A stretch of DNA of 64,000 bases from Azolla caroliniana (taxonomy: Eukaryota; Plantae; Polypodiophyta): NCBI GenBank assembly GCA_043228905.1, contig JBHGNT010000016.1:16430001-16494000 (forward strand). Reading direction: 5' to 3'. Shown here piece by piece: positions 7,499-60,808 of the stretch. The notes beneath the pieces are model-generated. The model ran no database searches. It was not told the origin of the DNA and worked only from the letters and a program-made list of their open reading frames with translations. The position numbers were made by a program, and so were the translations under genes. Position 1 is the first letter of the stretch. The number at the start of each line of letters is the position of its first letter.

Positions 7499-8524
7499 TG
7501 TCATGAAGATTTTCAACGATAGTGTGAAACTTGTGAGGAACATACGAAATCGAGTATGGTTCTTCTCACGAAATATAGAACAATAATAGTGAAGATACTA
7601 TTCTAAATAAGTTTAATATCTTGGCACAAAAAGATGGAGGTCTTGAAGAGTTTTTAAATGCACTTTCCTACATAACAAACAACCAACTAAGTGTGAAGTT
7701 ATGTGGGTATGAAGTTCTGACAAAAAAGAAAAGAAAAGAAAAACAAACTTGTCAGATGTCCCACATAGATAGGACAAATAAGGATCCTACAATATATAAA
7801 GCAAAGCCAAAAGTTATTACTTTGTGTCAATGTGTGGAGCATAGAAAGTTCAAGGTGACTTGAACTAAGTTAATCAAATGAATGGGTGTGGCCTAGCTAC
7901 TTGAAAAAGTTCTGGCCAACTAAAACCGGACCGGTGGCGGCCACCAGTGACCGGCCGGTGATGAAACCGGCTCGGGATGCGAACGGAACCGGCTAGGGAT
8001 GCGGACCAAACAGGTGCAAATCGGACGGATCGGTTGATCGTGGTGCATGGTGTCTTAAAGATATTTGGTATAATTACAAGACCAAAAGCCTAATAGTATT
8101 TTGTTCTTTAAAAATGGATGTATGCAAGACTTAAACATTGCACCTCCAAGTTGGGAATCTATAGGCTTAACATTAAGCCAAATCATTTCTCTAGGGATAT
8201 ATTTTTTATCACTATACTTTTACATGTAATTCTCATACATGAGAGCTTAGATGATGAAATGGCAAGCATGCATTGCATGCATTCCGTGCATGTCTTGCAT
8301 CTATAAAATAGTGGAGGAATCAAGCAAGTGGAGAGCTATGTATTAATCAAGAAATTAAGAGGAGGAAAATTCGTTATTTCATTTTTGTGATGTATTAATC
8401 TTGTCTCTTTCAATCTATCTTAAATACTTTCGTGCTAAAACTTGTGCAAACTTTGAATCCTTCCGGTCTAGAACCCCGGCGGTTCTACCTGGCGATCCGC
8501 ACATAGTGACGAATCTTCATGACA
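7499..8524 (+). repeat. 3' LTR
   Basis: Copy of 1077-2072 preceded by PPT. Confidence 0.95.
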
Positions 8525-18999: not shown

Positions 19000-20180
19000 A
19001 AATTCAAGTCTCACCACGGAAACATGGAACTTGCTAACATCCTAACATGTAAATTCTTGTCACAATTTATATTTCAGAATCATAGATGTGACCTTTGTTA
19101 AGCGCTCGTGCCATTCGAAGTGGTGCAATGTCAAATAAATTACAAGGTTGATCCACATGCCAAATTGAACGCAACGAAGGATTTCCTACTTTGACAATGT
19201 AGAAAGAAACATCCACCCCAATTGCTAAGAAAGATGACGAGTGGTGGTAGGGACCCGTAGTTATGATGGTGGTTGAGGGTGAGCTAGAAAAAGGCATCAA
19301 ACTCGACAGGTTCATATTTTGATCACGTCTCGTCGGATTAATCTCCTCTAACTGCTCACACCCTCATAAATTCAAAAATCTCATGACTTCAAACTAGACG
19401 ATTGCAAGCCCAACTCTTCATTTCCTCTATCCTTGAGCTCCATGATTCCCAAAAAAGCAAAAACTCAAACCACTAAGTGCTCACCAATGGGAAAAAATGA
19501 ACCTAAAAAACCTAGCCTAGATCTTTTATAAGAGTTTGGAGCTTTCTCGTCCATCACTTAACTTTGTGTCTGCATTCATATCTATGCACAGGACCTAGTT
19601 CAATGTGTGTAATTTGTTTTAACGTCATGGCTGCCATATGCTATTTTTGGTCTTGAGTGAGATTTGGACCTCCATCTTTAGTTCAAACAACCATTTACTC
19701 TAACAAATTGAAATAATATCATTCCATTCTTCATATCTCCTTATGCATATTCATTTTTTTTCCAAAATAAAGCTACTTTCCCATTAGTTAGGAAGGATTA
19801 TTACAAGGAGACTATACAAGGAAGCTTCTTTCACACCTCCCTCCCTTCGATGTAGGCTTAGGTGTGCATATTCATTTTTATTATCATTGTAGATTCTCAA
19901 CTATTTGCTTTCTAGTTAGGGGGCATCTATATCATTCATTACGTACATAGAATAGTTTGAACTATTGACTCTTTAGTCCCTTTCAGCCCATGACAAGAAC
20001 TCCAGCTTTCCCACACACCCAATTAAATGTTTATCTTTGTGACATTTACGGGTTTCTGACTCAATTTACCCAAGTCCTTATTATGTCAGTTGTATTAATA
20101 AGAGATTTAATCATTTCAACAACTTCTGAAGTTATTTACAATATTGTTTAGTGGAGTTTGATAACTTCCACAAATGCAAA
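19000..20180. repeat. Diverged ~1.1-kb direct repeat, copy 1
   Basis: Colinear similarity to 23560-24545 (e.g. tgtcacaattt.tatttca.aatcat, aaaactcaaacca, tagattctcaactatttgctttct, ttaatcatttcaacaa). Confidence 0.85.
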
Positions 20181-20487: not shown

Positions 20488-20732
20488 GGGAAAAGTACCA
20501 GGATACCCCTGGAAGTTCGTCTATTAGAATGCCCCTGGAAGTTCCAAATTTACCAAACTACCCCTATGTCCAAAAAATTACACTTTATAAAATAATAATA
20601 CACTCAAAACTTTGGTAAATAAGGCTAGTTCGGGTCCATTTTTTGGACATAGGGGTAATTTGGTAAATTTGGAACTTCCAGGGGCATTCTGGTAAATAGA
20701 CGAACTTCCAAGGGTATCCTAGCACTTTTCCC
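20488..20732. mobile_element. Mutator-like MITE, 245 bp
   Basis: ~90-bp TIRs starting GGGAAAAGT and ending ACTTTTCCC; 9-bp TSD tatatatat/tatatacat in a TA microsatellite. Confidence 0.88.
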
Positions 20733-23559: not shown

Positions 23560-24545
23560 GAGTCTCTTCATTAGAAACATAGAGCTCGCAGATATCCTAA
23601 CTTTGTAAATTTTTTGTCACAATTTGTATTTCAAAATCATGAACATGACCCTCATCGTGCGTTCATGCCATTAACAGTGATTCAAAGTTGGTCGGTCCAC
23701 ATCCCAAATTGAACACAATTACTGGTTTCCTATTTGATAATGTCGAAAGGAAAATTGTCCCTATTGCGCAAGAAAGATGAAGAGTGGTTGTAGGGACCCA
23801 TAGTTATGCTTATAGTGTTCAAGGGTGAGTTAGGTGGAGACATGTGTTCATATTTCAATCACATCTCATCGGATTAATCTGCTCTAACAACTCATATCTT
23901 CAAAAATTTTAAAACCTCACAAGTCCAAAGTAAACTTTCCAACTCTAAATTTCCTCCATCCTTGAGCCCCAAGATTCCCAAGAAATCAAAAACTCAAACC
24001 ATCCACTAATCGAAAAAACAAAACCTAAAAACACTAGCCTAGACATTTTATAAGACTTTGGAGCTTTCTTGTCCATTAGTTGAGTTTGTATTTGTATTCA
24101 TATCTATGGAGGGGACTTGGTTCGATGTGCCTGCATATGATATTTATGGTCTTAAGTGAGATTTGAACCTACACCTTTAGTTTGGAGTCTAGACAACAAT
24201 GTATTCTAACAAATTGAAATAATATCTCTTCATTCTTCATATCTTTTATGCATATTGATTTTGATCATTCTAGATTCTCAACTATTTGCTTTCTGATTAG
24301 GAGGTATTCATATCATCTTTACAAAAAATAATTTGAACTTTGGACCTTTGTGTCATTTGAGAGCCCATGAGTCATGACAAGACCTCCAACTTTGCCACAA
24401 CACCCCATTAAATGTTTATGTTTGTGACATTTGTGGTGGCTTTATCATGATAGTTGTATCAATATGATATTTAATCATTTCAACAATGTTAGAATCAACC
24501 TACAACATTGTACAATTGAGTTTGAAAGTTTCCACAAATGAAACA
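23560..24545. repeat. Diverged direct repeat, copy 2, upstream of AKR
   Basis: Homologous to 19000-20180; 24745-24785 also matches 21198-21235. Confidence 0.85.
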
Positions 24546-34775: not shown

Positions 34776-35233
34776 TGTTAGGAATAGTACTAAAGCAGAG
34801 ATGGAATTAGTACTAGAGAAGAGCAGTACTATTAGTACTAAGAGGACGGGACTGCGTAAGACTCCTGAGAGAGAGAGAAAGAGAGAAGCAAAAAGAGAGA
34901 TAGCGAGAATGAGAGAGAGAGAAGGATGATGACAACAGCTCTTATATTATATGAAAGATAAGTACAAATTGGCTAAGAGGCTTAAGACTGGTGTTGAACC
35001 AATTTGGTTCAACATAATGCCTAGTGCCTTCTTTTATAGTGTTGTCAAGAGTAATCCTGAAACTTCTAGAATGTTCCAGAGAAATCTGGAATATACATTA
35101 CTTTCTTATAATAAAACATAAATGAAAATAATATCCAAGGAATTACAATGGATGGTGTGATGGTTAAGAGCTCGACCCATATGCCATAAGGTTATGGGTT
35201 CGAGTCTTGCCATATCATGACACTATCTCCCCC

Positions 35234-38200
35234 TTAAAGACGACGAGTGGAACGAGTCGGCGCTGATTGCGGACCGGGTTTGTCCGGATACTTTCGATGG
35301 AAATCAGCAAGCAGATCCTGAGCATTGGCAACATGCTCGACGGGTTCCCAAGTGCGTTCGCTCGAACTATAACCAAGCCAATCGAGCAAATAATAAAGTT
35401 TGTTGCGAATAAGTTTGGAATCGAGGATGGCAGCAACTTCATACTCCGGGCCGACGTCCAACTCCAGCGGGGGCGGCGGTAGTGTAACATGATCGGGAAT
35501 GGTGTTTGCTTTATAAGGTTCAAGAAGAGAACAATGGAAAACCGGATGTATCTGAAGCTGTGGAGGGAGATCGAGGCGAAATGTGACATCATTAACCTTA
35601 CCCGTAATACGAAAAGGAGTGAGTCGTCGATAATCCAACTTGTCACACGGTTGAGTAGTCTTGATGTGACGATGTAAGAGCCATACTCAATCTCCGATGG
35701 CAAAAGAGAGGGGAAGTCGATGACGATCCGCGTAAGTCTTCTATGTTTGTTGAGCATGACGAAGATGAGTCGAGAGATCTGTTTGGATCTTGCGTAGTCT
35801 CTCCAAATGATCCCCGGCACGAGGATTGGTAGGTAACTCCGGGGTGTCGATCACCGACCAGCGAGGATGAGAACCGGTATAAGCGTAGAATGGGGAGACT
35901 CGAGTCGAGGAGTGAACAACATTATTATACGCAAACTCTGTAAAGTGGAGAATCTCGGCCCAATCGTCCTGTTGATAACTCAGGAAACACCTGAGATATT
36001 GCTCCAGCTTTTGGTTTGTTCGTTCCGCCTGCCCATCGGTTTGAGGATGGTACCCGGAGGAGAGGTTGCAAGAGACCTTGAGCATCTTGAAGAGATGCTG
36101 CCAAAATTTGGAGACAAATTGCGGTCCTCGGTCACTGATGATACTGTCTAGGAGGCCATGATGCCGAAATACCTCACGCATGACTAGGGTGGCGGTTTCC
36201 TCGCTAGTGATGGCCTTAGTACACGGAACAAAATGTGCCATCTTCGTATATCGATTGACGACGGTTAAGATAGCATCGAACCCCTGCGAGACCGGCAAAT
36301 CTGTGATAAAATCAAGACAAATAGACTGCCACGGCTTACTTGGAATCGGTAAGGGTTCCAACAAACCATATGGATGGTGTCGTGGCATCTTTGCTCGGCA
36401 GCAAGCATCACAAGTCTGAACGTAGTCGTCGACAAAACGACGCATGTGGGGCCACCAAAAAGATCGCTGCACTAGCTCCAACGTCTTAGTACTACCGAAA
36501 TGTCTCGCCGTATGGGTGTCGTGACAATGTTGGACGATTTGAAGGCGGCAGGAGCAATCGGGGACATATACGCGCTTTTTAAAGAATAACAAACCATCAT
36601 GATATTCGAATTGTCGGTAGTCAATACCTGGTTGTTAAGACTGAGAACAGGATGCCCGAGAAGTATCAATGTGGGCCAGGATGTCTTGAGCAAAACTATC
36701 CGTCTTCAAGTTTGCACGTATGTCATCGGTAATCCGTGAATCCATCAGGGTGTGAAAAATCTGCGTCGTGTGCAATCGTGTTGGCCCCAAGATTACTTGC
36801 TTTTGATTATCAAATGTTGGATCACCAGGACGAGGTGCAAGATATGAATGCCGTGATAGTGCATCTGCTTTTCCTTGCTGCTTCCCCGGTCGATATGTGA
36901 TTTTGAAGTCGAAATGCGTGAGGAATTGCGCCCACCGAGCTTGCCGTCGATTTAGTACGCGAGTGTTCTGGAAATAAGCAAGATTTTTATGATCACTAAA
37001 GACAATGACCTGATGTGGAGAGCCCTCTAAGAAATGCCGCCATTGCACAAATGAATCCACGATGGCTAATAACTCCTTGTCATGTATTTCGTAGTTGATT
37101 TCCGCGACATCGAATTTGTGCGAATGGAAAGCCACCAGATGCAACTCTTCTTTATCTCCTTGTTGAGAAAGGATGCTACCGAGGGCGAAATTTGAAGCAT
37201 CGGCCTCCATGATGAATGGTTTGCTGGTATCCACATGAGCTAGAATCGGTGCTGATGTAAAGGCTTTCTTAAGATGCCGAAAAGCCATATCTGCTTCGAT
37301 GGACCAAAGAAATGCTTGGCCCTTCTTCGTAAGTTGTGTGAGGGGTAAAATAATCTTTGAATAATCCTGTATAAACTTACGGTAGAAGTTAGCAAAACCT
37401 AGAAAACATTGTACATCTCGTACCGACCGTGGAATTTGCCACTCTAGTACAGTTTGAACTTTAGCTGGATCCATGGCGATGCCCTTTGAGGAGATGACGT
37501 AGCCTAGAAATTCCACTTGCTTGCAGTCAAAGCTACATTTTTCTAGCTTGGCATAAAGACCATTCTCGCGGAGCCACTTTAGTACTAATAGTACATGAGA
37601 ATCGTGCTCTTGCTGGGTCTTCGAATAAATCAATAGATCATCCAGATAGATGATCAAATAGATATCCAAGAGGTCTCTGAATATATCATTTGCCATGTGT
37701 TGGAAGACTGCGGGTGCATTGGTTAAGCCGAACGGCATAACAATATACTCGAAATGCCCATACCGCGTGCGAAAGGCGGTCTTCCATTCATCTCCCGGTC
37801 GGATCCGCACGAGGTTATACGCTCCTCGTAGATCGATTTTGGTAAAAAACTTGGCACCATTAACTCGCTCTAAAAGACTTGGTATAAGAGGAAGTGCATA
37901 CCTATTCCGGATGGTGACCTTATTCAATCCGTGGTAATCAACGACGAGACGAAGTGAGCCATGTTTCTTCTTGACAAAGAAGATGGGTGCACCGGCCAGA
38001 GATTTCGAATGACGGATGAACCCGCTTGCCAAGTTCTCCTCTATGTAGGCTCGAAGGACTTCTAACTCGGTGGGTGACAAGTTGTAAATTGGTCCCCATG
38101 GTGGCTCGGTTCCTGATTGTAAATTGATGGGACAGTCATAGGGACGGTGATGAGGAAGGGTACCGGCTTTTACCTTGTCAAATACATCGGCATAAGGATG

Positions 38201-39789
38201 ATATTTTGCCGGAAGTTGTACTGAGGAGTCCTTCTTAATAGTGTTGGAAGGATGTACTGATATTGCAAATAGGAACATTGCCTCCTTGTGTCCTTCTTCG
38301 CGTAATTGATGGAGTGAAATGGTCGAAACTCGGTGAGTAGATTCTTGGGGTGGTCGATATCAGACTTCTCTTGTTCTCCAATCTATGGCTAGATTATGTA
38401 ATTCAAACCAAGGTAATCCTAGGACAATGGGATGCTCTGGACTACTACTTATATTAAATGATATTACACACACAAAACTACCTAGGACAACTTGAATGGG
38501 TTCTGATTCTTCTACAATATTCCCGGAAGCAATGGGACGACCATCAATGACTACTACAGATGCGGGACAAGGAAGTTTTCTTAGGGATATCTGAGAAGCT
38601 TGGGCAAAATTTCGATCCATGAAACAGGAATTAGCTCCGGAATGTAAAAGTGCTAGGACGGGTACTGGGAGAGTACTTTTAGTACTAACAATGACTTGGG
38701 CTAGGAACACATTGCTAACTTGCTTGGAAGGAATGGAATCACTAATGGGCTGTACAGATCTAGGGCTGCTGTCCAACCAAACGGCTCCTATTTTGGATGG
38801 ACTCAATTGTTTAACTCTTCATCTAATTGACTAAGGATTTCAAATTTGTTTGAGATACTTGGGCTATTAGTACTATGAATACTATCTGACACTCTATTAG
38901 TACTATTAATACTATCTGACACTCCGAAGGGAAGAATTGACTCGGGTTTAGTACAGGCAACGATTTGATTTACCTGTCTTCTTGGCCTATGGGGACAATT
39001 GATGGCGATATGCCCTGGTCCACCGCAATAAAGACATAATCGATTGGCACGTCGTCGTTGCTTTTCTTCTTCCGATAACGGGCCGCGTCGACGCATGGTA
39101 TCTTTCTCCATCGGTGTCGAAGTATTTGCTTGAGGTATGTCTCGTGCAAACGGTTTAGCCACGACTGCGGCGTAAGTGGGCTTTGGCCTAGAGCGTGGTA
39201 TCTGTAATTGACGTTCCGAACGCCGTTCGAAAAGGCGGTTGTCACATCGGACCGCTCAACCGATTGCCTCCGTAAGAGACTTTGGTTCTTCGGGGAAAGT
39301 TAGAAGTAGATCTTTGACATCGTTTCGCAGGACATAGCAAAACTGCTCCATTAGTGCTTGATCATCCCAGGGTATATCTGAAGCGAGTAGGCGGAAATCC
39401 GCAGCATAGGCAGAGGCTGGACGATCGCCTTGACGCAATCGCCGGATCTTCTTGATCGCCGTCCTGATGTTGTCGGTGTCTCGAAAGCAGGCTTTAAACT
39501 CACTAATAAAATCTTCAAAGCTATTAAGCAAGGGCGATTGTTTTTCTAGAAGCGGAGCGAACCATGCTAAGGCTGAGCCGCTAAGCAACGTGCCAATTAA
39601 GCCGACTCGGGATGCATTAGTGGGATATCGGGAAGGATGCATTTGGAGGATTAATCGTACCTTATTAAGGAATCCCCTGAATTGCGATCGCGTTCCATCA
39701 AATTTCACAGGAAGTCCAATCTTCGGCTCTTTATGAAATCCTTGGGGACTTGATCCTTGTTGTTGCAATGCTGCTTCGAGTTGTTGCAC
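35234..39789 (-). pseudogene. gag-pol of chromovirus A, with frameshifts and stops
   Basis: ORFs 39256-39789, 38803-39162, 38360-38806, 36635-38278, 35741-36592, 35234-35638. Confidence 0.93.
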
Positions 39790-40346
39790 TCCTAATGCTA
39801 ACTGTCGTGACTCTTGAGTAGGAAGCAGAGAGAGAGCGATGGCGATAGAGATAACGATAACGATAGAGATGGCGAGAGCGGTAGAGATAGCGATAGTGAT
39901 AGCAAAAGAGAGTGAAAAAGGGAGAGAGTGCGAGAGAGAGAAAAGTATAAGTGAGAGATAAGAAATGGGAATGAGATTATATTATGAGAAAGAAGATTAC
40001 AAGGAGTAGGCTAAGGGCTAAAGACTGGTGTTGAACCGAATGAGTTGTGATGAGTGTATGGACTCTTATTTATAGGCCCTTATGGAGTATTCTAGAATGT
40101 TCTAGAATATTTTAGATATTTATGAATAATAATAATAATAATAAATATAATCATGAAATATTCAAGAGCATTCTAGAATAATCTAGAATGTTCTAAATAT
40201 CTCGTAATAACTAAACATATAATTATTATGATTACATCTCACATATGTTATTACAATGGTTAAAGTACAATATGTAAACCAAGAGGTTATGGGTTCGATT
40301 CCTGGTTCGCCAAGATGAATGTCATGATAAGCCAAGATGTATGTCT

Positions 40347-43300
40347 TCATGACATTATCCCCCCTTTTCGATGACGAGTTGCACGAGTCGGAAGAAAAGA
40401 TTTCAGACTTGGTTTATGAGGATATTGGTTGTGAAATGCAACAACCATGTCGGAGGCATTGGCAAGATGTTCGGCAGGCTCCCATGTTCGATCATTAGGT
40501 GTATAGCCTAACCAATCAACCAAGTAGTATAGTTTGTTGCGAATGATCTTGGAGTCGAGGATAGCGGCAACCTCATATTCAGAGCCATTGGAAACGTCAA
40601 TTGGAGGTGGGGGAGGTGTAACACGACCCGGAATAGAGCTCGTTGTGTAGGGCTCCAAAAGTGAAACATGGAAGACCGGGTGAAGACGCATATGAGGAGG
40701 AAGATCAAGACGAAATGTCACATCATTGATCTTACCACTTATGACATATGGGCCAAAACGTTGATAATCCAATTTGTAGCAAGGTCGGGTCGTTTTAATG
40801 CTACCTTGTAAGAGCCATACACGATCGCCTACTTGAAATGTAGTCGATGAATCACGCCGATGACGGTCAGCAATCTTTTTTTGAGTGTTTTGGGCTTCAC
40901 ATAAATGATGCAAAAGCATATCCTGAACTTCTTGGAGTCGAGTGAGCCGATCTTCAGCAGCTGGGTTTTTTGGGAGTTCAGGATGTTCAAGCATCGTCCA
41001 ACGAGGATGGTACCCAATGTTTGCAAAAAATGGGGAATATCCAGTAGAAGAATGCTCGGAGTTGTTATAAGCAAATTCTGCCAAAGGTAGTAAATCCACC
41101 CAATCATCTTGTTGATAGTTGACAAAACAACGTAGATATTGCTCGACTGTTTGGTTGGTGCGCTCACTCTGCCCATTAGTCTCTGGATGGTAACCGGAAG
41201 AGAGTTTACAAGAAGTATGTAAGAGTTTGAACATGTGCCGCCAAAATTTCGAGATGAATTGGGGACCCCGATCACTGATAATATCATCCGGAAGACCATG
41301 ATGGCGAAACACCTCCCGCATGAGTAAATCAGCTGTCTCTTGACTAGTAATGGTCTTTGTGCATGGAAGGAAATGTGCCATCTTCGTAAAACGATCGACA
41401 ACCGTGAGAATCGAATCAAATCCCTTGGAAGGTGGAAGATCCGTAATAAAGTCCAAGGAAATAGATTTCCATGGGCTCTCCGGAATAGGCATTGGCTGTA
41501 ATAAGCCATATGGATGATGTCGAGGCTTTTTTGATCGGCAACATGTATCACAGCTACGAACATAATCCGTAACAAAATGGCGAAGCCGTGGCCACCAATA
41601 TCGGCGAGAAATCAACTCAAAAGTCTTGTGGATGCCGAAGTGTCCCGCCATTGGTGTGTCATGACATTGTTGCATGACTTTGAGTCGAGAAGGACCGTCA
41701 GGCACATACAAGAGAGTTTGTCGAAAAAGTAACCCATCATGCCAACTAAACTGGGTGTAGTCTAGACGAGGATTTTGAGTTTGGGAGCTAGATGCACGAT
41801 TTGGGATAATATGGCTCAAAACCTCTTGGGCGAACGCATCAATCGCAATCTGCTCACGAATGGAATCAAGAAGCCTTGAATCTCCCGGTGTGTTGATGGT
41901 ATGCATTGCCATTATTCGTAGACGATCAGGACCTAAGAGGATTTGCTTTTGGCTTTCAAATGCGGCCTCTCCAGGTTGAAGTTCCATATACGAACGTCTA
42001 GATAAAGCATCTGCTTTTCCTTGTTGCATCCCAGGGCGATATAGAATTACAAAATCGAAACGAGTTAAGAACTGCGCCCAACGAGCTTGTCGTCGATTCA
42101 AGACTCGAGCACTTTGAAAGTATGTTAGATTTTTATGATCATTGTAGACAATAATCTGCTGAGAAGAACCCTCCAGAAAATGACGCCATTGTTGAAAAGA
42201 ATCCACAATGGCAAGAAGCTCTTTGTCGTGAATCTCATAGTTGATTTCTGCGGCTTCAAATTTTCGTGAGTGAAAAGCCACCGGGTGCAGTTCACCATCA
42301 TCACCAATTGGGATAGTACACTTCCGAGTGCGAAATCCGATGCATCAGCTTCAAGTATAAAGCGCCTCATTGGATCGACATGGATTAAGATTGGTGTGGA
42401 TGTAAATGCTTGCTTTAAACCCTCAAATGCAGAGTTCGCATCTATACTCCATACAAATGGTCGATTCTTGTGCGTCAGTTGAGTGAGGGGCAACACAATT
42501 TTTGAATAATCTTTGATGAACTTGCGATAAAAGTTTGCGAACCCCAAAAAACATTGCACATCTCGCACGGACTGTGGTGTTTGCCAATCCAAAATTGTTT
42601 GAACCTTTGATGGATCCATAGAGATGCCATTTGAAGAGACTATGTACCCCAAAAACTCCACTTGACATTGGTCGAAACTACACTTCTCCAATTTTGCATA
42701 GAGACCATACTCTCGTAGCCGTTGCAAAACTTGGCGAACATGTATATCATGTTCTTCTTGAGTTTTTGAGTAGATCAAGATATCATCCAGGTAAACAATG
42801 ATGAAGATATCGAGGAAGTCTCGAAAAATATCATTCGCCATATGTTGGAAGACTGCTGGTGCATTCGTGAGGCCAAAAGGCATCACTGTGTACTCAAAAT
42901 GACCATAGCGAGTGCGGAACGCCGTCTTCCATTCATCCCCAGGACGAATTCGAACAAGGTTGTAGGCACCTCGAAGATCTAACTTCGTGAAATACTTTGC
43001 TTCACTGAGGCGTTCTAGAAGGCTTGAGATCAATGGGAGAGCATATCGGTTTCTAACGGTCACTTTATTCAAGCCTCGATAATCCACGACCATACGAAGC
43101 GTACCATCTTTCTTCTTAACGAAAAAGATGGGTGCACCAGCAGGAGATTTTGAATGTTGGATAAAACCATTTGCCAAGTTCTCATTGATATATTCTCGAA
43201 GAACCTCTAACTCCGTGGGCGAAAGATTATAAATTGGTCCCCATGGAGGCTCTTTTCCTGGCTGCAAATCAATTGGGCAATCATATGGTCGATGCTCTGG

Positions 43301-43951
43301 TAGTCTATTAGCCTTCACCTTATCGAACACATCGGAGAATTCTATGTACTTCTTTGGTAGTTGGACCCCCAATTCTTGTGAGCTAGATGAGGGAGTTGCT
43401 AAAACCGCAAATACCATCATGTCTTCCTTTCTTCCATCCTCTCGTAATTGATGTATAGAGATTGTTGAAATTGTGGGGGATCCTAGATCCTTAGTTGGAG
43501 CTTCAAGAGACTTGGATTGTACGGTGACCTCTTCAATAGTTCTTTTTCTCCAATCAATGGTTGGGTTATGTAACTCAAACCAAGGAAGACCAAGAACTAG
43601 AGAGTGCTCCGGACTACTAATGATGTTAAATGAGATGACACTAGCCAAATTACCTAGGACTACACGAATTGGTTCAGACTCTTCGACTATATCTCCTGAT
43701 GCTATAGGGCGACCATCGATGACTCCTACAGCTACTGGGTTTGGGAGTTTTTTCTAGATGATGTTTTGAGTCAATGCAAACTCGTGATCCATGAAACAAG
43801 AATTGGCTCCGGAATCTAGGAGGGCAGAGGCTAGGGCGCGATGACCTGTAGATGTGCTAAGCTCGACTTGTGCAGAAAAAACTCTACTAACTTGATTTGA
43901 TGAAATGGAACCACAACTAGGTACTGACTCTACATAACTAGGATGGTCCAA
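40347..43951 (-). pseudogene. pol (PR-RT-RH-IN-chromodomain) of element B; one stop at 43754 and a 1-bp deletion near 42307
   Basis: LLDSGA, MPFGLTNAP, YLDD, DASD, HDKELLA, HPETNGQSER, FGPY, YEVAAILDSK...WEP. Confidence 0.95.
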
Positions 43952-45104
43952 CCAAATGACTCCTATTTTGGCCGGACTTATTCTTTAACACATCCTCTAA
44001 TTGGCTCAAGACATCAAATCTATTCTCATGGCATGGGCTATTAGGCTTAGTACTTAAGTTATTAGAAGTGATAGTAGAACTTGATGTAGGGTTGTCATGT
44101 GCACTTACTTGGTAAACTTGACGCCTGGGTTTATGTGGACAATTCACAACTATATGTCCTGGACCACCACAGTAGAGGCATAGGCGATGCGCCCGACGTC
44201 GTTGTTTCTCAGCATCTAATAAGGGCCCTCGACGTTGTGTCGACTCTATTTCCATCGGAGTGGGACCATCCCTCGTAACGGGTCTAGAACCTTGTGGCGG
44301 TGTGGCGACTATAGAAGCGTATGTCTGTTCCGGTTGGCGGCGTAACATTTGTTGACGTTCAGAACGTCGCTCAAATAGGCGATTATCACATCGCACAGCT
44401 CGGCTAATAGCTTCAGTAAGAGACTTTGGATCTTCATGGAAAGTAAGAAGAAGATCTTTGACATCGTTACGCAAACCCTGACGGAATTGATCCATTAAGG
44501 CTGCCTCATCCCAAGGGATGTCGCATGCCAAGAGACGGAAATCTGCGGCATAAGCTGAAGCGGGACGATCTCCTTGTCGGAGTCTTCGAATCTTGTTTAT
44601 TGCAGTCCTAGTGCTATCCGTATCTCCAAAACTAGCTTGAAACTCCTTAACGAATGCCTCGAAATCCTCCAGTAATGGTGATTTCTTCTCAAGAAGTGGT
44701 GCAAACCTTGCTAACGCTGTACCGCTTAGCAAGGTTCCTATTAATCCCACACGGGCAGCATCAGTTGGATACCGATTGGGATGTAACTGAATCACCAAAC
44801 GAACTTGATTCAGGAAACCTCGAAAGAGAGATCTGGTACCATCAAACTTGGCAGGGAGGCTAATCTTTGGTTCCCTTGGGGAGTTTTGAACCCCCGCCGC
44901 TTGTTCTCGTAATGTTAATATAGTAGCCTCAAGTTGATGAACCCGTTGTGATAACTCCTCATATTGATGAGCTTTCTCAGTACTGACTTGTTGAAGATCC
45001 CCGAGTAGCCTTTGATTTTCTTGCTCTAATGCCACAAACTTAGTGGTGAGCATATCGAGCTCCGAAAGGACACGCATATACTCTTGCTTGCTGACCGACT
45101 CCAT
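43938..45104 (-). CDS. gag of element B (388 aa)
   Basis: PAKFDG, LRQG..SAYAADF, PMEIE, knuckle CLYCGGPGHIVVNC. Confidence 0.92.
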   Translation of the reverse strand: MESVSKQEYMRVLSELDMLTTKFVALEQENQRLLGDLQQVSTEKAHQYEELSQRVHQLEATILTLREQAAGVQNSPREPKISLPAKFDGTRSLFRGFLNQVRLVIQLHPNRYPTDAARVGLIGTLLSGTALARFAPLLEKKSPLLEDFEAFVKEFQASFGDTDSTRTAINKIRRLRQGDRPASAYAADFRLLACDIPWDEAALMDQFRQGLRNDVKDLLLTFHEDPKSLTEAISRAVRCDNRLFERRSERQQMLRRQPEQTYASIVATPPQGSRPVTRDGPTPMEIESTQRRGPLLDAEKQRRRAHRLCLYCGGPGHIVVNCPHKPRRQVYQVSAHDNPTSSSTITSNNLSTKPNSPCHENRFDVLSQLEDVLKNKSGQNRSHLVGPS

Positions 45105-46921
45105 AACCGCGGGGGAAAAAGAAAGAAGGATAAAGAAGAAAGCTTGCTAGGGTTATTGGAGAAAGGGAAAAGAAATATTCGGTTCAAATTGTCGTGACTC
45201 TTGAGTAGGAAGCAGAGAGAGAGCGATGGCGATAGAGATAACGATAACGATAGAGATGGCGAGAGCGGTAGAGATAGCGATAGTGATAGCAAAAGAGAGT
45301 GAAAAAGGGAGAGAGTGCGAGAGAGAGAAAAGTATAAGTGAGAGATAAGAAATGGGAATGAGATTATATTATGAGAAAGAAGATTACAAGGAGTAGGCTA
45401 AGGGCTAAAGACTGGTGTTGAACCGAATGAGTTGTGATGAGTGTATGGACTCTTATTTATAGGCCCTTATGGAGTATTCTGGAATGTTCTAGAATATTTT
45501 AGATATTTATGAATAATAATAATAATAAATATAATCATGAAATATTCAAGAACATTCTAGAATAATCTAGAATGTTCTAAATATCTCGTAATAACTAAAC
45601 ATATAATTATTATGATTACATCTCACATATGTTATTACAATGGTTAAAGTACAATATGTAAACCAAGAGGTTATGGGTTCGATTCCTGGTTCGCCAAGAT
45701 GAATGTCATGATAAGCCAAGATGTATGTCTTCATGACACTAACTCCCCATGTTGTTGCTGCGTTTGTTGTTTTTCTAGAGCGATATGTTGCAGATCCCCT
45801 ATCAGTCGTTGGTTTTCTTGTTCCAAGGCAACAAATTTTTCTTTTAAGCACTATAGCTCGGAGAAAACGGATTGATATTCTTGGGCGCTAACAGTAGCCA
45901 TAGTATAGGAAAAAGGGTAGGAGGATGAGGGAGAACGACAAGTAGGTTGGAGGACCGGCAAAATTGGTTCAAACTGTCAGGAATAGTACTAAAGCAGAGA
46001 TGGAATTAGTACTAAAGAAGAGCAATACTATTAGTACTAAGAGGACGGGACTGCGTAAGACTCGAGAGAGAGAGAGAGAAAGAGAGATAGTGAGAATGAG
46101 AGAGAGAGAAGGATGATGACAGCAACTCTTATATTATATGAAAGATAAGTACAAATCGGCTAAGAGGCTTAAGACTGGTGTTGAACCAATTTGGTTCAAC
46201 ATAATGCCTAGTGCCTTCTTTTATAGTGTTGTCAGGAGTAATCCTGAAACTTCTAGAATGTTCCAGAGAAATCTGGAATATACATTACTTTCTTATAATA
46301 AAACATAAATGAAAATAATATCCTATGAATTACAATAGATAGTGTGATGGTTAAGAGCTCAACCTATATACCATAAGGTTATGGGTTCGAGTCTTGCCAT
46401 ATCATGACAGCTACCGTAGCTATTTCTTTGCAGCTTCAGATAGCGTTTGGCAGTCCATTTCTGCGTCGAGGTCGGAGAGCGTTGGCGAGGTTTGGTGGTG
46501 GGGAGAGTGCAAGAGAGAAAGTTCTGAGGGAGGGGGTTCACTGTGTGCGAGCTCTCTACGATTGATCTTCACGCGTCACTCTGCGTCTGTTCTCCTTGGT
46601 TCGCGATAGGAGAAGGTCTCGATGCGTGGGGCTTTTTCTCTCTGCATCTTGGCGCCTTTTTCGAGCCTCCGCATGTGCAAGTCGTGTACTATAATAGCAT
46701 TGCGTGCCATGTGGGGGTGGTTTAATGTCCTATTCATAGCCCCTCGTACCCTTTTTGACGTGCCTCTTTACTCCTCGTGTGCATGGTCGTTTCCACCACT
46801 CCTTTTCATGATTTATTTGTGACGGTTTGCCGTCGTTAAGCTTTCCCCGGTTGGCAACTCGTGCTCCCCCTTACCGGCTTGGTGGTAGCCGTTTTCCTCA
46901 CGGGTTGCCGTCGTGGTTGGC

Positions 46922-56200: not shown

Positions 56201-58729
56201 TGACAAATGGTCGGAAGCCTTATATACTTGACCATCACCTGACCCGACATCAACTATCCGGTCGGCGTGATCAACCAATATATACAGCAACCGACCGTGG
56301 ACCACCTTCTGTGCGCGCATCGAATTTTGCGATATGTGAACAACACGGAGGAACTGGGACTGTTATACCAGCATGGTATAACCGAAGAGATAGTTGGCTA
56401 CACCGATGCCGACTTGGCCAACGATGCATCAGATCGCCGATCCACCTCCGGATATATGTTTTCCCTTGGTAGCGCGGCTGTTGTGTGGAGCGGCAAAAAG
56501 CAGCCAACAGTGGCCCTTTCGAGTATTGAGGCTGAATATCAGGGCGCTACCGTCGCCACCTGTGAAGCCATTTGGCTTCGGCGACTGCTGCAAGACGTAC
56601 GGATCAAGGTACCGACCCCGATCCTGATCCACTATGACAATATGAGCAGCATGCAGCTCACCAAAAACCTTGTATTCCATGCTCGCACAAAGCACATAGA
56701 AGTGCACTACCACTTCGTGTGTGAGCGTGTCCTGAGCGGTGACGTCGAACTTCGGTATGTTCATATGGATCGGCAAGTTGCCGACATCTTCACCTAACCG
56801 CTCGGATCGGACAAGTTGCAGCACTTGACCGAAATGCTTGGTGTTCAGCATCTCGACGTGCCACACTTGAGGGGGAGAATGGGCAAAGACACCGGAACGG
56901 GAAAAGGCAAAGAGATTGTTGATTGCACTGGTAAGGGAAGAACCGTCAAGGGGAGAGACAAGAAGAAGAAAGGAGTCGATTCAACAAAGGAAGTTGACAC
57001 ATCCGAACAAGTCGGAACAAGCGGTAGCAGTGGGAGAATCAAGAAGGACAAAGCTGACCGGAAGAAGAAGGCAAAGACCCGGACATGGTCCGATGTGGTG
57101 AAGGGCCTGAGACAGCCGATTCAGTTCAACAGAAGGATTCCTAAGAACCGGATCAATCCAAGGCCAAGAGGACGAGAAGGTAGCGAAAGTCGACACCAAC
57201 ACGAAGGAATCGGCGAACGGGTACGCGTCGAAGTCACAGCAGCGAGGGAGCTGAATTGGGCCTGTTGATCAGATGAGCCGACCGAGAAGGTCGAGGTGCA
57301 CAAAACCAGAGGGGTCGCGGCAAACGGGACCGGACCGGACGAGTAGCATGCGCGAGGCGGGGTGACTCTAGAAGGAGCCGGGTGGAAGGACCAGCTACCA
57401 TGGAGACTAACACCACGATCCGACCTCAAGTTGAGCTTGAGGGGGAGTGTTGAGCGGCAAGCTCAACCGGATCCGGATCGGCATCCGGAAGGATGAGCCA
57501 GTGAGCAAGCGAGCCGGTGAGCTGGGGAGCCAGTTAGTTGGATCCAGCAATAACCGGAAGCCTACTAATAGCTTAGATTACTAGGTAGTTAATAGTCTCG
57601 TAATTAGTGTCAAACACTCGTGTGAGCATTGAAGTATGTTGTACTTCTGTCAGTCCTCTTAAGACTTGTATAAATAGTGTTGTTGAGCACGTTTCATGTA
57701 CAGAGAACTATTATTGATTTGTAATAGATTTAAAACCTTCTGCTCTCTCATTCTCTCTGTCTCTCCCGCGTACACTCTCTGTTAATCTCTCTCTCTCTCT
57801 GTTGCTATCTGGCAAGGCCGGTTTGTCTAATGCTTCCGCACATAAACTTTAACAAAAGGTTACATTTGTCGGATAACTTCACTCTTCGTGAGTTATACCA
57901 AGTCTATAAGGATGACATGTTACTGGAAGGTGTAGCTTATATACAATATAGGCATTTCAATCGTTTATGGAGATCGAAGTTTAACAATGTGGTCATACCC
58001 CGCAAGGTCTGGATGGGTGTTTCTTTGATCTGCGCAAGTTTAAAAAGCTTGGCAAAGAGTGGGACAAGAGATGAAGAAATAACAAAATATAAGACTTTAT
58101 TGAGAGACCATCGAGAAAGCCAAGGATTGGAAAGATCTAAAGCTATGTACCATCGTTAAGAAGTGATTCTATCACTAGAAAGATACATGTGCTTGATTAT
58201 AGATGGGATGGATCAGAAGAAAACTTGTTTCCCACATTTTTGAAGATTGCCCAAGGATATTGGAGATGAATGCCTAGTGCAGATGCAATTAGTAGGATGT
58301 CTTTTGTATTTTCAGACAATAAGGCCTCAAGTGTTCTTAACATATCCAAATATCCACAACGACCCTAATCTTACAGTTACAGTCATGCAAAGAGTTATGC
58401 AAAATTGGCAAGGTTTACTTCCACCAGTACTATACGTGCAACTTCACAACACGGCGAGAGAAAGCAAGAACTCAACTATGTTTGGTTACCTGAGCATGTT
58501 AGTAGACATGAGTATTTTCAAAAAGATTAAGGTCAACTTCTTGCTAGTTGGTAATACACATGATCACATAGAACAAATGTTTAGTAGGTTCTCCAAGAAA
58601 TTAGCGAGGTGCAATGCTTTCAAACTTCCTATGCTATCAAGGTTGATTACTAAAGCTTATACCCCCAAGCCAGATGTGCAACATTTAGATGAAGTATATG
58701 ATTTCAAACGCTTCTATTTGGATGGTGAT
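53205..58729 (+). pseudogene. Sola-type DDD transposase relic, split by the copia insertion and truncated by chromovirus C
   Basis: Reads through the TSD as RWMEIYFSKQCDVIPTTRRLHLSDNF; then C..C-like region, LIIDGMDQ, LYVQLHNTARESKN, FLLVGNTHDHIEQMFS. Confidence 0.72.
53388..57854 (+). mobile_element. Internally deleted Ty1/copia element
   Basis: LTRs 53388-53809 and 57448-57854; PBS 53810-53821; PPT gagggggag; TSD gaagg/aaagg; gag 53917-54710 joins the integrase C-terminus directly, then RT-RH. Confidence 0.94.
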
Positions 58730-60155
58730 TGTCAAGAGAGAGAGAGAGAGATAATTCAAAGGGAATTATTATATTGAAGAGTAAAATGGATTACAAAGAG
58801 TAGGCAATAGAGTGCTACAAAATAGTGTTGAAACCATTTAGGTTTGGGATAAGTGGTAGATCCCTATTTATAAGTAATAGAGAATACTCTAGAATATTCT
58901 AAGTTCTCCTAGAATGTAGAGTAATCTAGAAGATTTCTAGAGTATTCTAAAAGGTTCTAGTGTATAGAACACTCTAGAATATTCTAGGTTATTCTAGAAT
59001 GTAGAGTAATATAGAATATTCCTATGATATTAGATTTCATATTCTAAAAACTACATATAAGAATGTTAATACAATGGTTAAAGATTTGACATGTGTACAA
59101 CAAGGTCATGGGTTCAAATCCTTTTGAGGCATAATGTGAGTCTCATGATCCTTTAGATGCATGATGTGAGTGTCATCATGACACTATCCCCTTTCTTCGA
59201 CGACACGTCGCACAAGTCGTAGGGTTTGTATTAGGACCTTTTTTACGAGGATATTGCTGATGAAATGCAGTGACAAGTTCCGCAGCATTGGAAAGATTTG
59301 CAGCAGGTTCCCAAGTTTGATCATTGCGGGTATAGCCTAGCTAATCGACTAAGTAATATAGCTTGTTGCGCACGATTTTATAGTCGAGAATGGCATCAAC
59401 TTCAAATTCGGCTCCATCCAAGAACTCGACAGGTTGTGGGGGTGTCGTAAAACGGCCTGGAATTGAACTTGTAGTATAAGGTTCCAAAAGGGATAATTGA
59501 AACACCGGATGAAGATGCATGTGCGGAGGGAGACCAATACGAAATGCAACATCAAGTATCTTACCAGTGATGATGTAAGGGCCAAAACGTTGGTAATCCA
59601 ATTTACTGCAAGATCGAGTGGTCTTGATGTTGTGTTGGAGAAGCCATACATGATCCCCAACGTAGAACTTTTCTGAGCAGTCTAGACGATGACGATTGGC
59701 AAGCCTCTTGTGTGTAACTTGAGCATCCTGTAAATTGTGGAGAATGGTTGTGTGAATTTTTTGGAGGCGACTAAGATGATCCTCGGCAGTAGGGTTCGTA
59801 GGAATGTCTGGATGTGCATTCATCGTCCACCGAGGATGACAACCCGTATTTGCGAAAAATGGGGAATATACTATAGAAGAATGGGCTAAGTTATTGTAAG
59901 AAAATTCCTCCAAGTGCAAAATATCAACCCAATCATCTTGTTGATAGTTGATGAAACAACGAAGATATTGCTCCAACGTTTGGTTGGTACGCTGAGTTTG
60001 GCGATTTGTTTCGATATGATAGCCCGAAGAAAGCTAAACCGAAATGTGGAGAAGTTTGAACATGTGCTTCATAAACTTTGAGACGAATTTTGTAGCACTT
60101 TGTTGCCTACTCTTTGTAATCCATTTTACTCTTCAATATAATAATTCCCTTTCAA

Positions 60156-60197
<42 letters not shown>

Positions 60198-60311
60198 TAA
60201 CAGTTTGAACCAATTTAGGTTTGGGATGAGTGGTAGATCCCTATTTATAAGTAATAGAGAATACTCTAGAATATTCTAGGTTATCCTAGAATGTAGAGTA
60301 ATCTAGAAGAT
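58730..60311 (-). mobile_element. Chromovirus C remnant: 3' LTR 58730-59183, IN-chromodomain fragment, rearranged 5' LTR piece 60087-60311
   Basis: ORF 59341-59976 homologous to the integrase/chromodomain of B; PPT ctatccccttt on + strand. Confidence 0.88.
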
Positions 60312-60808
60312 CCGGTCCAGTTCTGTACAGCCCAATTCGGTCGCCCTCCGGTTCTGGTTCTATCCAATCCGGTTCTGTCACCGTCCTTCAGTCCAACCCG
60401 GTTCGATGGCCATCTGGTCCGATCTGGTTCTGTCTTCGTTCAGTCACCATCTGGTTCCGGTTCCATCGCCGATTCCGGCAACTTAGCCACATCCATCCAT
60501 CAAGACAAAGTGGCCCAAGTTCAACCATTGCTTTTGTGCTCTCAACACATAGATAAAAACTAATGGTTTTCAATCTGTTTATATAGCTGGATCCTAAAGT
60601 TTCCTATCTATGTGGGATATCTCACAATTTTGTTTTCCTCTTCTTCTCAAACTTCACACACAGCTAACTTGATACTTGTTTGTTTATTTCATGTGTAGTA
60701 AAATGCGTTATGAAGCTCTTGAAGACATTTATCTTTTAATAACAAACCATGTAATCTTCAATAATTATTTTACTAGTTTTCATATCGTGTGTGAAGATCC
60801 ACATGACA
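60312..60808 (-). repeat. Partial LTR related to the 1077-2072 family
   Basis: Reverse complement contains tgtcatgtggatc..., gagatatcccacatagatagg and ggatcc.gctatataaa, like 1077-1500. Confidence 0.6.

Follow-up and report, generated by a model that had tools for sequence, protein, structure and literature searches.

Three Related Chromoviruses in the Window

The DNA analyzed here (64,000 nucleotides of an Azolla caroliniana contig; hereafter the window) is plant DNA rich in LTR retrotransposons, and the datasets that contain it comprise, among others, four species labels and metagenomes of leaves or plants. Three related elements on the minus strand, termed A, B, and C, carry the module described below. 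Element A (34776-46409) possesses a 3' LTR of 447 bp with TG..CA ends (34776-35222) and a 5' LTR (45975-46409), which differ by 16 substitutions in 432 aligned bases, and its TSD is GCTGT/GCTAC (3/5). A TATA box was found at 35032-35038 of the 3' LTR, a polypurine tract (PPT) at 35226-35235, and the region for gag, PR-RT-RH, and integrase-chromodomain, in which in-frame stops are present, at 35228-39732. The primer-binding site (PBS) at 45961-45972 comprises 12 nt complementary to the element's own LTR (46181-46192). Element B (39803-45738) sits within the 5' gag region of A, where its TSD is CTAAC, and its 3' LTR (39803-40354) and 5' LTR (45190-45738) differ by 2 substitutions and one 3-nt indel. 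It encodes gag, PR-RT-RH, and an integrase that bears both SH3 and a class I chromodomain (40347-45146; one RNase H frameshift), and its PBS (45177-45187) comprises 11 nt complementary to the start of its own R (45418-45428). Element C (58730-60090) is a truncated 3' end with a 3' LTR (58730-59183), a PPT, and the integrase C-terminus. A DUF7869 reading frame (58244-58777) is broken by this element, at the end of which part of its own U5 recurs in inverted orientation (60087-60175; 97% to 58735-58823); its PBS region and then a direct U3 piece follow (span 58730-60330).

The carriers show the Ty3/gypsy order gag-PR-RT-RH-INT with a C-terminal chromodomain (Chromo E-value of 9e-12 in B). The chromodomain of B (EYEV...VDWLGY) retains all of Y24, W45, and Y48 of the class I aromatic cage, the roles of which are described in the available text of PMC3350952. 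The PBSs of A and B are complementary to their own LTRs just below the TATA box, and no tRNA primer site was found in either element. A self-priming PBS is given as a mark of Tcn1/Tf1-sushi chromoviruses, the known plant hosts of which are mosses and lycophytes (PMC6317226, available text). Domain order, cage, and self-priming are the marks by which we provisionally assign the carriers to the Tcn1/Tf1-sushi type. Two Anolis Gypsy integrases, with 51% identity, were the sole homologues that bore a name.

Arrays of TTCTAGAA / TTC..GAA..TTC, which we take to be akin to heat-shock elements, were seen at 35055-35090 (between the module and the TATA box of A), 40085-40200, and 58880-59020, and occur in U3 of A, B, L002, and L010; such arrays suggest that these families may be heat-inducible. 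The LTR ends TGTCATGA are common to the chromoviruses and an unrelated Gypsy element in the window (40319-40354, 7500-7512, and 8512-8524), and B and C bear internal repeats of this end word. Separately, a MITE-like long inverted repeat was found at 20510-20690, with a weak Rfam match to MIR2599 (43 bits against the cut-off of 120).

A tRNA-Derived Module Close to the Outer Edge of U3

In the 3' LTR of A, the plus strand of 35153-35206 comprises an A box (35153-35163), the equivalents of tRNA positions 44-48 (35189-35193), and a B box (35197-35206). The corresponding modules lie at 46340-46393 in the 5' LTR of A (found by both pattern and profile), at 40249-40301 (A box at 40249-40259, G53 at 40293) and 45633-45685 (G53 at 45677) in the 3' and 5' LTRs of B, respectively, and at 59067-59120 (G53 at 59112) in the 3' LTR of C. 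All five modules are on the plus strand and gag-pol is on the minus strand, so that the boxes indeed run opposite to element transcription, as the first-pass annotation of this DNA had described. The five B-box words cited there were in place as well (GGTTCGAGTC at 35197 and 46384, GGTTCGATTC(C) at 40292 and 45676, and GGTTCAAATC(C) at 59111), and G53 is 25 (A), 62 (B), and 72 nt (C) away from the LTR edge, in accordance with a position near the end of U3. Two details needed amendment. The A-box word TGGTGTGATGG does begin at 35153, but the copy at 46340 reads TAGTGTGATGG; the spacing of 35-36 nt holds as the distance from G18 to G53 (36 in A, 35 in B, and 36 in C), but becomes 36-37 when counted from the start of ATGGTTAA to that of GGTTCRA.

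A pattern fitted to the five copies matched five times in the window and never in 100 shuffles. In IMG/VR, the same pattern with one base relaxed had 11 exact hits; 10 of these sit in register inside tRNA-Glu genes called by ARAGORN, and G18-G53 was 36 in all of the five tRNA-Glu matches measured. The spacing of the module equals that of real tRNA genes, as had been claimed; the matched genes are phage genes that testify to the spacing only and do not name the donor tRNA.

From the host DNA inward, the order along U3 is the LTR edge, B box, A box, AT-rich tract, enhancer-like repeats, TATA box, and R, and the element's own Pol II promoter is located 114-207 nt further in than the module. Inward of the A box lies a tract that in A (35118-35148) is 80% AT and constitutes a candidate TFIIIB/TBP site. 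Across 12 clade rows (see below for the clade), the 30 nt next to the A box on this side were 80-93% AT even where the deeper U3 was 42-50% AT, a composition such as a TFIIIB site would be expected to have.

The self-primer at the start of R (45418-45428 and 46181-46192) itself conforms, in sense orientation, to the consensus of the B box; this holds for 8 of the 10 rows in which the TATA box was seen, and in those rows the Pol II promoter is thus flanked by two B-box-like words. Since families outside the clade show the same, the self-priming motif probably resembles a B box by coincidence. A hand-made A/B score, which gave some outside loci 13-14/15 in the sense direction on account of the self-primer, was abandoned for a profile score that removed these hits.

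Distribution of the Module among Related Loci

We retrieved 94 loci by searching with the integrase C-terminus, so that the LTR had no part in their selection (the best 80 of 598 metagenome loci and 14 genome loci), and subjected them to a quick maximum-likelihood analysis with IQ-TREE (95 rows; L076 and L078 were left out as too short). A, B, and C fell into a single clade of 18 rows with an SH-aLRT of 97, to which L078 was joined by 84% identity, and three of the clade rows end before the position of the module. In the profile scoring, which leaves out the family of the row being scored, 15 of the 16 assessable clade rows possessed the module with 22.9-43.4 bits, and the module was antisense in all 15; L078, a rearranged contig, retains only the B half. 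Outside the clade, none of 72 loci scored above 6.4 bits on either strand, each with at least 170 nt available below the chromodomain (of the 78 outside loci, 6 lacked this length, and 51 had a called LTR start with 150 nt or more). All of the clade contigs came from one assembly series and represent one host group; L046, which is from the same series yet branches outside the clade, scored 4.2 bits. No chromovirus relative was found in the viral contig collection.

The first-pass annotation had spoken of three divergent LTR families. Three families do carry the module, but they are related rather than independent, since their integrases form one clade, and the simplest reading of the tree would be one gain in the ancestor of this clade. 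Several of the metagenome contigs (L004-L011) run in the order integrase-LTR-gag, as would be expected of collapsed or circularized assemblies of high-copy families; their flanks do not represent true insertion sites.

Both LTRs of an unrelated, non-chromovirus Gypsy element in the window (LTRs at approximately 1078-2072 and 7500-8524; RT 27% identical to that of B) contain an A/B-like match that is likewise antisense, though weaker, with the G53 equivalents at 1647 and 8136 on the minus strand and scores of 16.6 and 21.5 bits. The match lies about 110 nt above the TATA box, is followed by a T run, and has T at position 56 in both copies. Shuffles gave 0.025 hits above 18 bits per window, and a 19.2-bit match inside the coding DNA of L010 indicates that such scores can arise by chance.

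Conservation of the Boxes and Drift of the Spacer

We compared 11 lineages with one row each, leaving out the near-copies (the A copy of the window, L004, L005, and L011) and the broken L078. Their integrases were 0.65 identical at the protein level and 0.41 identical at four-fold sites (range 0.19-0.81), the synonymous sites being near-saturated. Positions 53-61 (the B box) and 44-48 showed identities of 0.81 and 0.84, respectively, values inflated by the anchoring of the alignment on G18-G19 and positions 44-61. T8, A14, and T16 were not anchors, and the spacing of L013 and L002 was set by hand. In the A box, T8, R9, and Y11 were kept in all 11 lineages and A14, R15, T16, G18, and G19 in 10, while G10 was mostly lost (kept in 4/11); the box bases counted 147/154 without G10 and 151/165 with it. 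GTTCRANNC of the B box was complete in 8/11 lineages and one base off in L002, L007, and L013. The anticodon region has diverged, as had been noted earlier, with an identity of 0.33-0.40 at positions 24-43. The 3' flank was 0.33 and the 5' flank 0.41-0.43 identical, and the sequence after C61 was not conserved. G18-G53 was 35 or 36 wherever GG was intact, and the distance to the LTR edge varied from 25 to 72 nt. Thus, the conservation check that had been proposed for the module, under which boxes no more conserved than the flanking U3 would speak against it, placed the boxes far above spacer, flanks, and synonymous sites. The kept boxes, set against the drifted spacer, give good support to a tRNA-derived Pol III promoter module under selection.

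Single rows with lost box bases do exist (L002, L005, L013, and L078). Deeply covered contigs matched the consensus in 82/84 cells and low-coverage contigs in 37/42, and most of the broken boxes lie in low-coverage contigs, which are probably single-copy. The inner U3 turns over, with heat-shock-like arrays in five rows and RY/G-box arrays in four, and the module was retained throughout.

Among four DNA runs of four species labels, family B showed six variable sites within 12 nt of the spacer (40266-40277). One variable site fell in 40284-40301, whereas 40249-40265 had none, and neither had the final 46 nt of the LTR. For family A, within 40 of 198 variant rows, the B box had no variant, and A14 was canonical in 36-76% of the depth of three DNA runs, the window copy having G there. 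The CpG of the B box was retained in 7/11 lineages, and the CpG observed/expected ratio of U3 was 0.68, a comparison that we do not take as informative. Of the C/G sites in the 5' LTR of A, 5/20 were changed at positions 1-43, 0/9 at positions 44-61, and 9/135 further in (Fisher p of 0.02 for the first against the last). In this old copy, the changes of C-to-T type on the A-box side indicate that the module enjoys no shielding of its own from such decay.

The Module Is Not a tRNA Gene

ARAGORN detected no tRNA gene in the window or in the 33 related loci scanned, and with Rfam neither the window (E ≤ 1) nor 35100-35240 (E ≤ 10) matched a tRNA. The cells of the four cloverleaf stems were Watson-Crick in 19/77, 18/44, 18/55, and 24/55 cases, none above shuffles, and the Levitt pair 15-48 was kept in 3/11 lineages. 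We therefore rejected the module as a tRNA gene, on the basis of the lacking cloverleaf and the negative ARAGORN and Rfam searches. There was no fixed terminator, the distance from C61 to the first T4 run ranging between 1 and 1027 nt in 16 rows, and no shared fold, z being -2 or below in only 2/11 lineages. Contigs of one run that we guess to be RNA cover the modules of A and B and are silent on strand and ends.

In family A (35150-35222), the spacer repeats the B-box region imperfectly in inverted orientation and forms a long hairpin with it (z of -4.5 and -4.0). Relative to 500 shuffles, the spacer-B box pairing stood at 0 and 2 for A, 3 for L007, and 14 for C; the hairpins of L007 and C are weaker than that of A, with matching changes on both arms. 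This pairing is found in these 3/11 lineages and absent in 8/11, and a model acting at the level of DNA does not explain it.

A44, G46, and T47 are invariant. In the yeast TFIIIC structure, tauB makes contact with a base that precedes the B box on its upstream side, and both binding and transcription respond to changes at +44 to +47 (PMC11724288, available text), by which the invariance of these bases is accounted for.

Comparison with Known Pol III Promoters in LTRs

Among the closest parallels we found is Helenus (TRIMp3; Kojima 2024, PMC10886601), both LTRs of which likewise contain a sequence of tRNA origin that is conserved at and near the A and B boxes and yields no functional tRNA; SINE capture has been proposed as the origin. 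According to the available text of the same paper, Helenus is non-coding, 311-1263 bp long, and equipped with a tRNA-type PBS, and its Pol III promoter would, as proposed there, transcribe the element. Unlike Helenus, the carriers found here are approximately 6 kb in size, encode gag-pol, prime themselves, have a Pol II TATA box, and bear boxes that face away from the element. Of the features of Helenus, the carriers thus share the A/B boxes in both LTRs, and neither the short non-coding form nor the tRNA PBS nor a Pol III promoter placed to transcribe the element, the module being antisense in 15/15 carriers. Kojima also remarked that "not a few LTRs" in Repbase resemble a part of a tRNA, in an analysis that, in the text available, covers TRIMs only and leaves the orientation unstated (PMC10886601); such LTRs may therefore have been seen without being analyzed.

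The Cassandra and Ajax TRIMs likewise have an LTR-internal Pol III promoter from a small-RNA gene. Unlike the present carriers, they are 5S-derived and non-autonomous and drive the element's own RNA, which the text available describes as shown for Cassandra (PMC10886601). The Pol III miRNA cassettes of foamy virus LTRs also place A/B boxes in the LTR of an autonomous Pol II element, but comprise hairpins, fixed terminators, and miRNA products (PMC3993851, available text), whereas the module here has no conserved hairpin or terminator. Yeast tDNA/ETC barriers and mouse B2 boundaries likewise set TFIIIC-type boxes beside a Pol II promoter and, as far as the available portions of the sources go, function without need of a tRNA product (PMC12409998, PMC7990762, and PMC8136502). 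These are host loci or SINE copies, whereas the putative TFIIIC site here is a heritable part of an autonomous LTR. The B2 boundaries of mouse have been linked to CTCF (PMC8136502, available text).

Tcn1/Tf1-sushi chromoviruses share with the carriers the domain order, aromatic cage, self-priming without a tRNA PBS, and LTRs of 440-550 bp; the available texts mention no A/B module for them (PMC6317226, PMC2864245, and PMC3350952), and, as described above, 0/72 outside-clade loci have one. In the literature searched, which barely extended to subscription papers and Repbase, we found no A/B module described in chromoviruses or in the LTRs of any other autonomous plant element; such cases may be listed in the supplements of PMC10886601 and PMC6317226. 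We regard the module as a further variant of Pol III promoters in LTRs, real and selected, to which a function can be assigned only by inference.

Alternative Explanations for the Conserved Boxes

If the module were a working Pol III promoter, selection may act on an antisense RNA running from the 3' LTR through the PPT into the chromodomain region, the product of which would limit the copy number or seed small RNAs in the manner of the foamy-virus LTR Pol III cassettes, the precedent for this explanation (PMC3993851, available text). The A box, the B box, and the AT-rich upstream tract are all kept, which is beyond the needs of a bare ETC site; family A has its long hairpin, and a T4 run is found at the PPT in four rows (B of the window, L001, L002, and L078). 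Nevertheless, the first T4 run wanders, few lineages fold, the sequence past C61 is unconserved, and G10 is mostly lost; moreover, the copy in the 5' LTR would run into unrelated host DNA. We consider this explanation unlikely, and a defined antisense Pol III transcript, as the first-pass annotation had offered as one option, is disfavored by the scattered T4 runs and the lack of a shared fold. The conserved bases could also act as RNA, with the genomic RNA pairing with a host tRNA or forming a hairpin behind the PPT and thereby aiding strand transfer or packaging. A tRNA-like sequence is present in U3 of HIV-1. Positions 44-61 form an almost unbroken conserved block, and A, L007, and C show pairing between spacer and B box, but the elements prime themselves and need no tRNA, and the pairing is missing from the majority of the lineages. 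Furthermore, positions 10, 12, 13, and 59 and the anticodon arm vary freely, which a promoter read by proteins allows and pairing with one tRNA would not. An RNA role of this kind appears quite improbable to us.

We hold it equally doubtful that TFIIIC at the end of U3 tethers the pre-integration complex (the unintegrated cDNA), or that the LTR serves as a landing pad for elements targeting Pol III. The B box is indeed within 25-72 nt of the cDNA end, but its distance to the att end is not fixed, and no tRNA gene was found in the window or in the 33 loci, many of which are collapsed contigs without true flanks. In addition, B was inserted in the gag region of A, away from the module of A, and an insertion upstream of the A box was seen in 0/5 window copies. 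As for a neutral SINE or tRNA relic inherited by descent, a donor exists, since degenerate tRNA-head copies with the same A-box word are found in the host DNA of L013, and box bases have been lost in the single copies L002, L005, L013, and L078. On the other hand, the boxes were kept although synonymous sites have fallen to an identity of 0.41 and the inner U3 has been replaced, the kept columns are those of the promoter type, and the saturated spacer argues against a recent exchange of LTR ends between families. A neutral relic is thus largely refuted and has very little probability left.

A Putative TFIIIC Site as a Possible Barrier or Opener

From the pattern of conservation, we regard it as highly probable that the module is a selected TFIIIC-type site, and this site likely acts at the level of DNA. 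TFIIIC recognizes the B box together with bases 44-47, and the A box positions TFIIIB. That the site serves as a barrier or an opener for the element's own Pol II promoter is, in our estimate, about as probable as not. The fuller proposal, that the promoter of a tRNA gene was domesticated as a cis anti-silencing device, a self-carried TFIIIC insulator that would shield the LTR promoter, and that this was possibly achieved more than once, is put forward tentatively, as somewhat short of probable. The possible repeated gain is based on the plant clade and the weaker copy in the unrelated Gypsy LTR of the window. An insulator, offered by the first-pass annotation as one of two functions, would fit the anatomy of the module by analogy.

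The steps may have been as follows. A tRNA gene or the head of a tRNA-derived SINE would have been captured once, ancestrally, into the 3' U3, and each round of replication would then copy the module to both LTRs. TFIIIC would sit at the LTR edge and load TFIIIB toward the interior, so that these factors and the Pol II promoter stand back to back. Copies probably come to lie in H3K9-methylated chromatin through the class I chromodomain, and there the module would amount to a gain in transcription; by keeping new copies transcribable, the site would be selected at the level of the element and not of each copy. The class I chromodomain of MAGGY binds H3K9me and steers to such chromatin (PMC3350952, available text), and tDNAs and ETC sites block the spread of heterochromatin in yeasts (PMC12409998 and PMC7990762, available texts).

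Capture of a SINE head is plausible as the origin. Degenerate, SINE-like host copies of a tRNA head, some in tandem, are present at 290-540 of L013 and on the minus strand of the window at 19640-19720 and 24150-24230. One copy on L013 bears the same A-box word as the families L001 and L009, and these SINE-like copies are a candidate donor family.

Some observations weigh against the barrier. TFIIIC tolerates A-B spacings of 32-93 bp in yeast, according to the part of the source available, and the spacing of the module seems tighter than TFIIIC would require. G10 is mostly lost, and the carriers are from one host group. The analogy draws on barriers in yeasts and mammals and not in plants, and no plant evidence for tDNA-type barriers was found in the literature searched.

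How chromoviruses inserted in silent chromatin get transcribed is an open question, and the module offers a short, defined candidate that can be tested base by base. The boxes face outward in the carriers and cannot drive the element; their presence extends Pol III promoters in LTRs from small non-coding TRIMs, in which they drive the element, to full coding elements. If the proposed explanation is true, an abundant family of plant retrotransposons would be a source of mobile TFIIIC sites, very many of them across the host genome.
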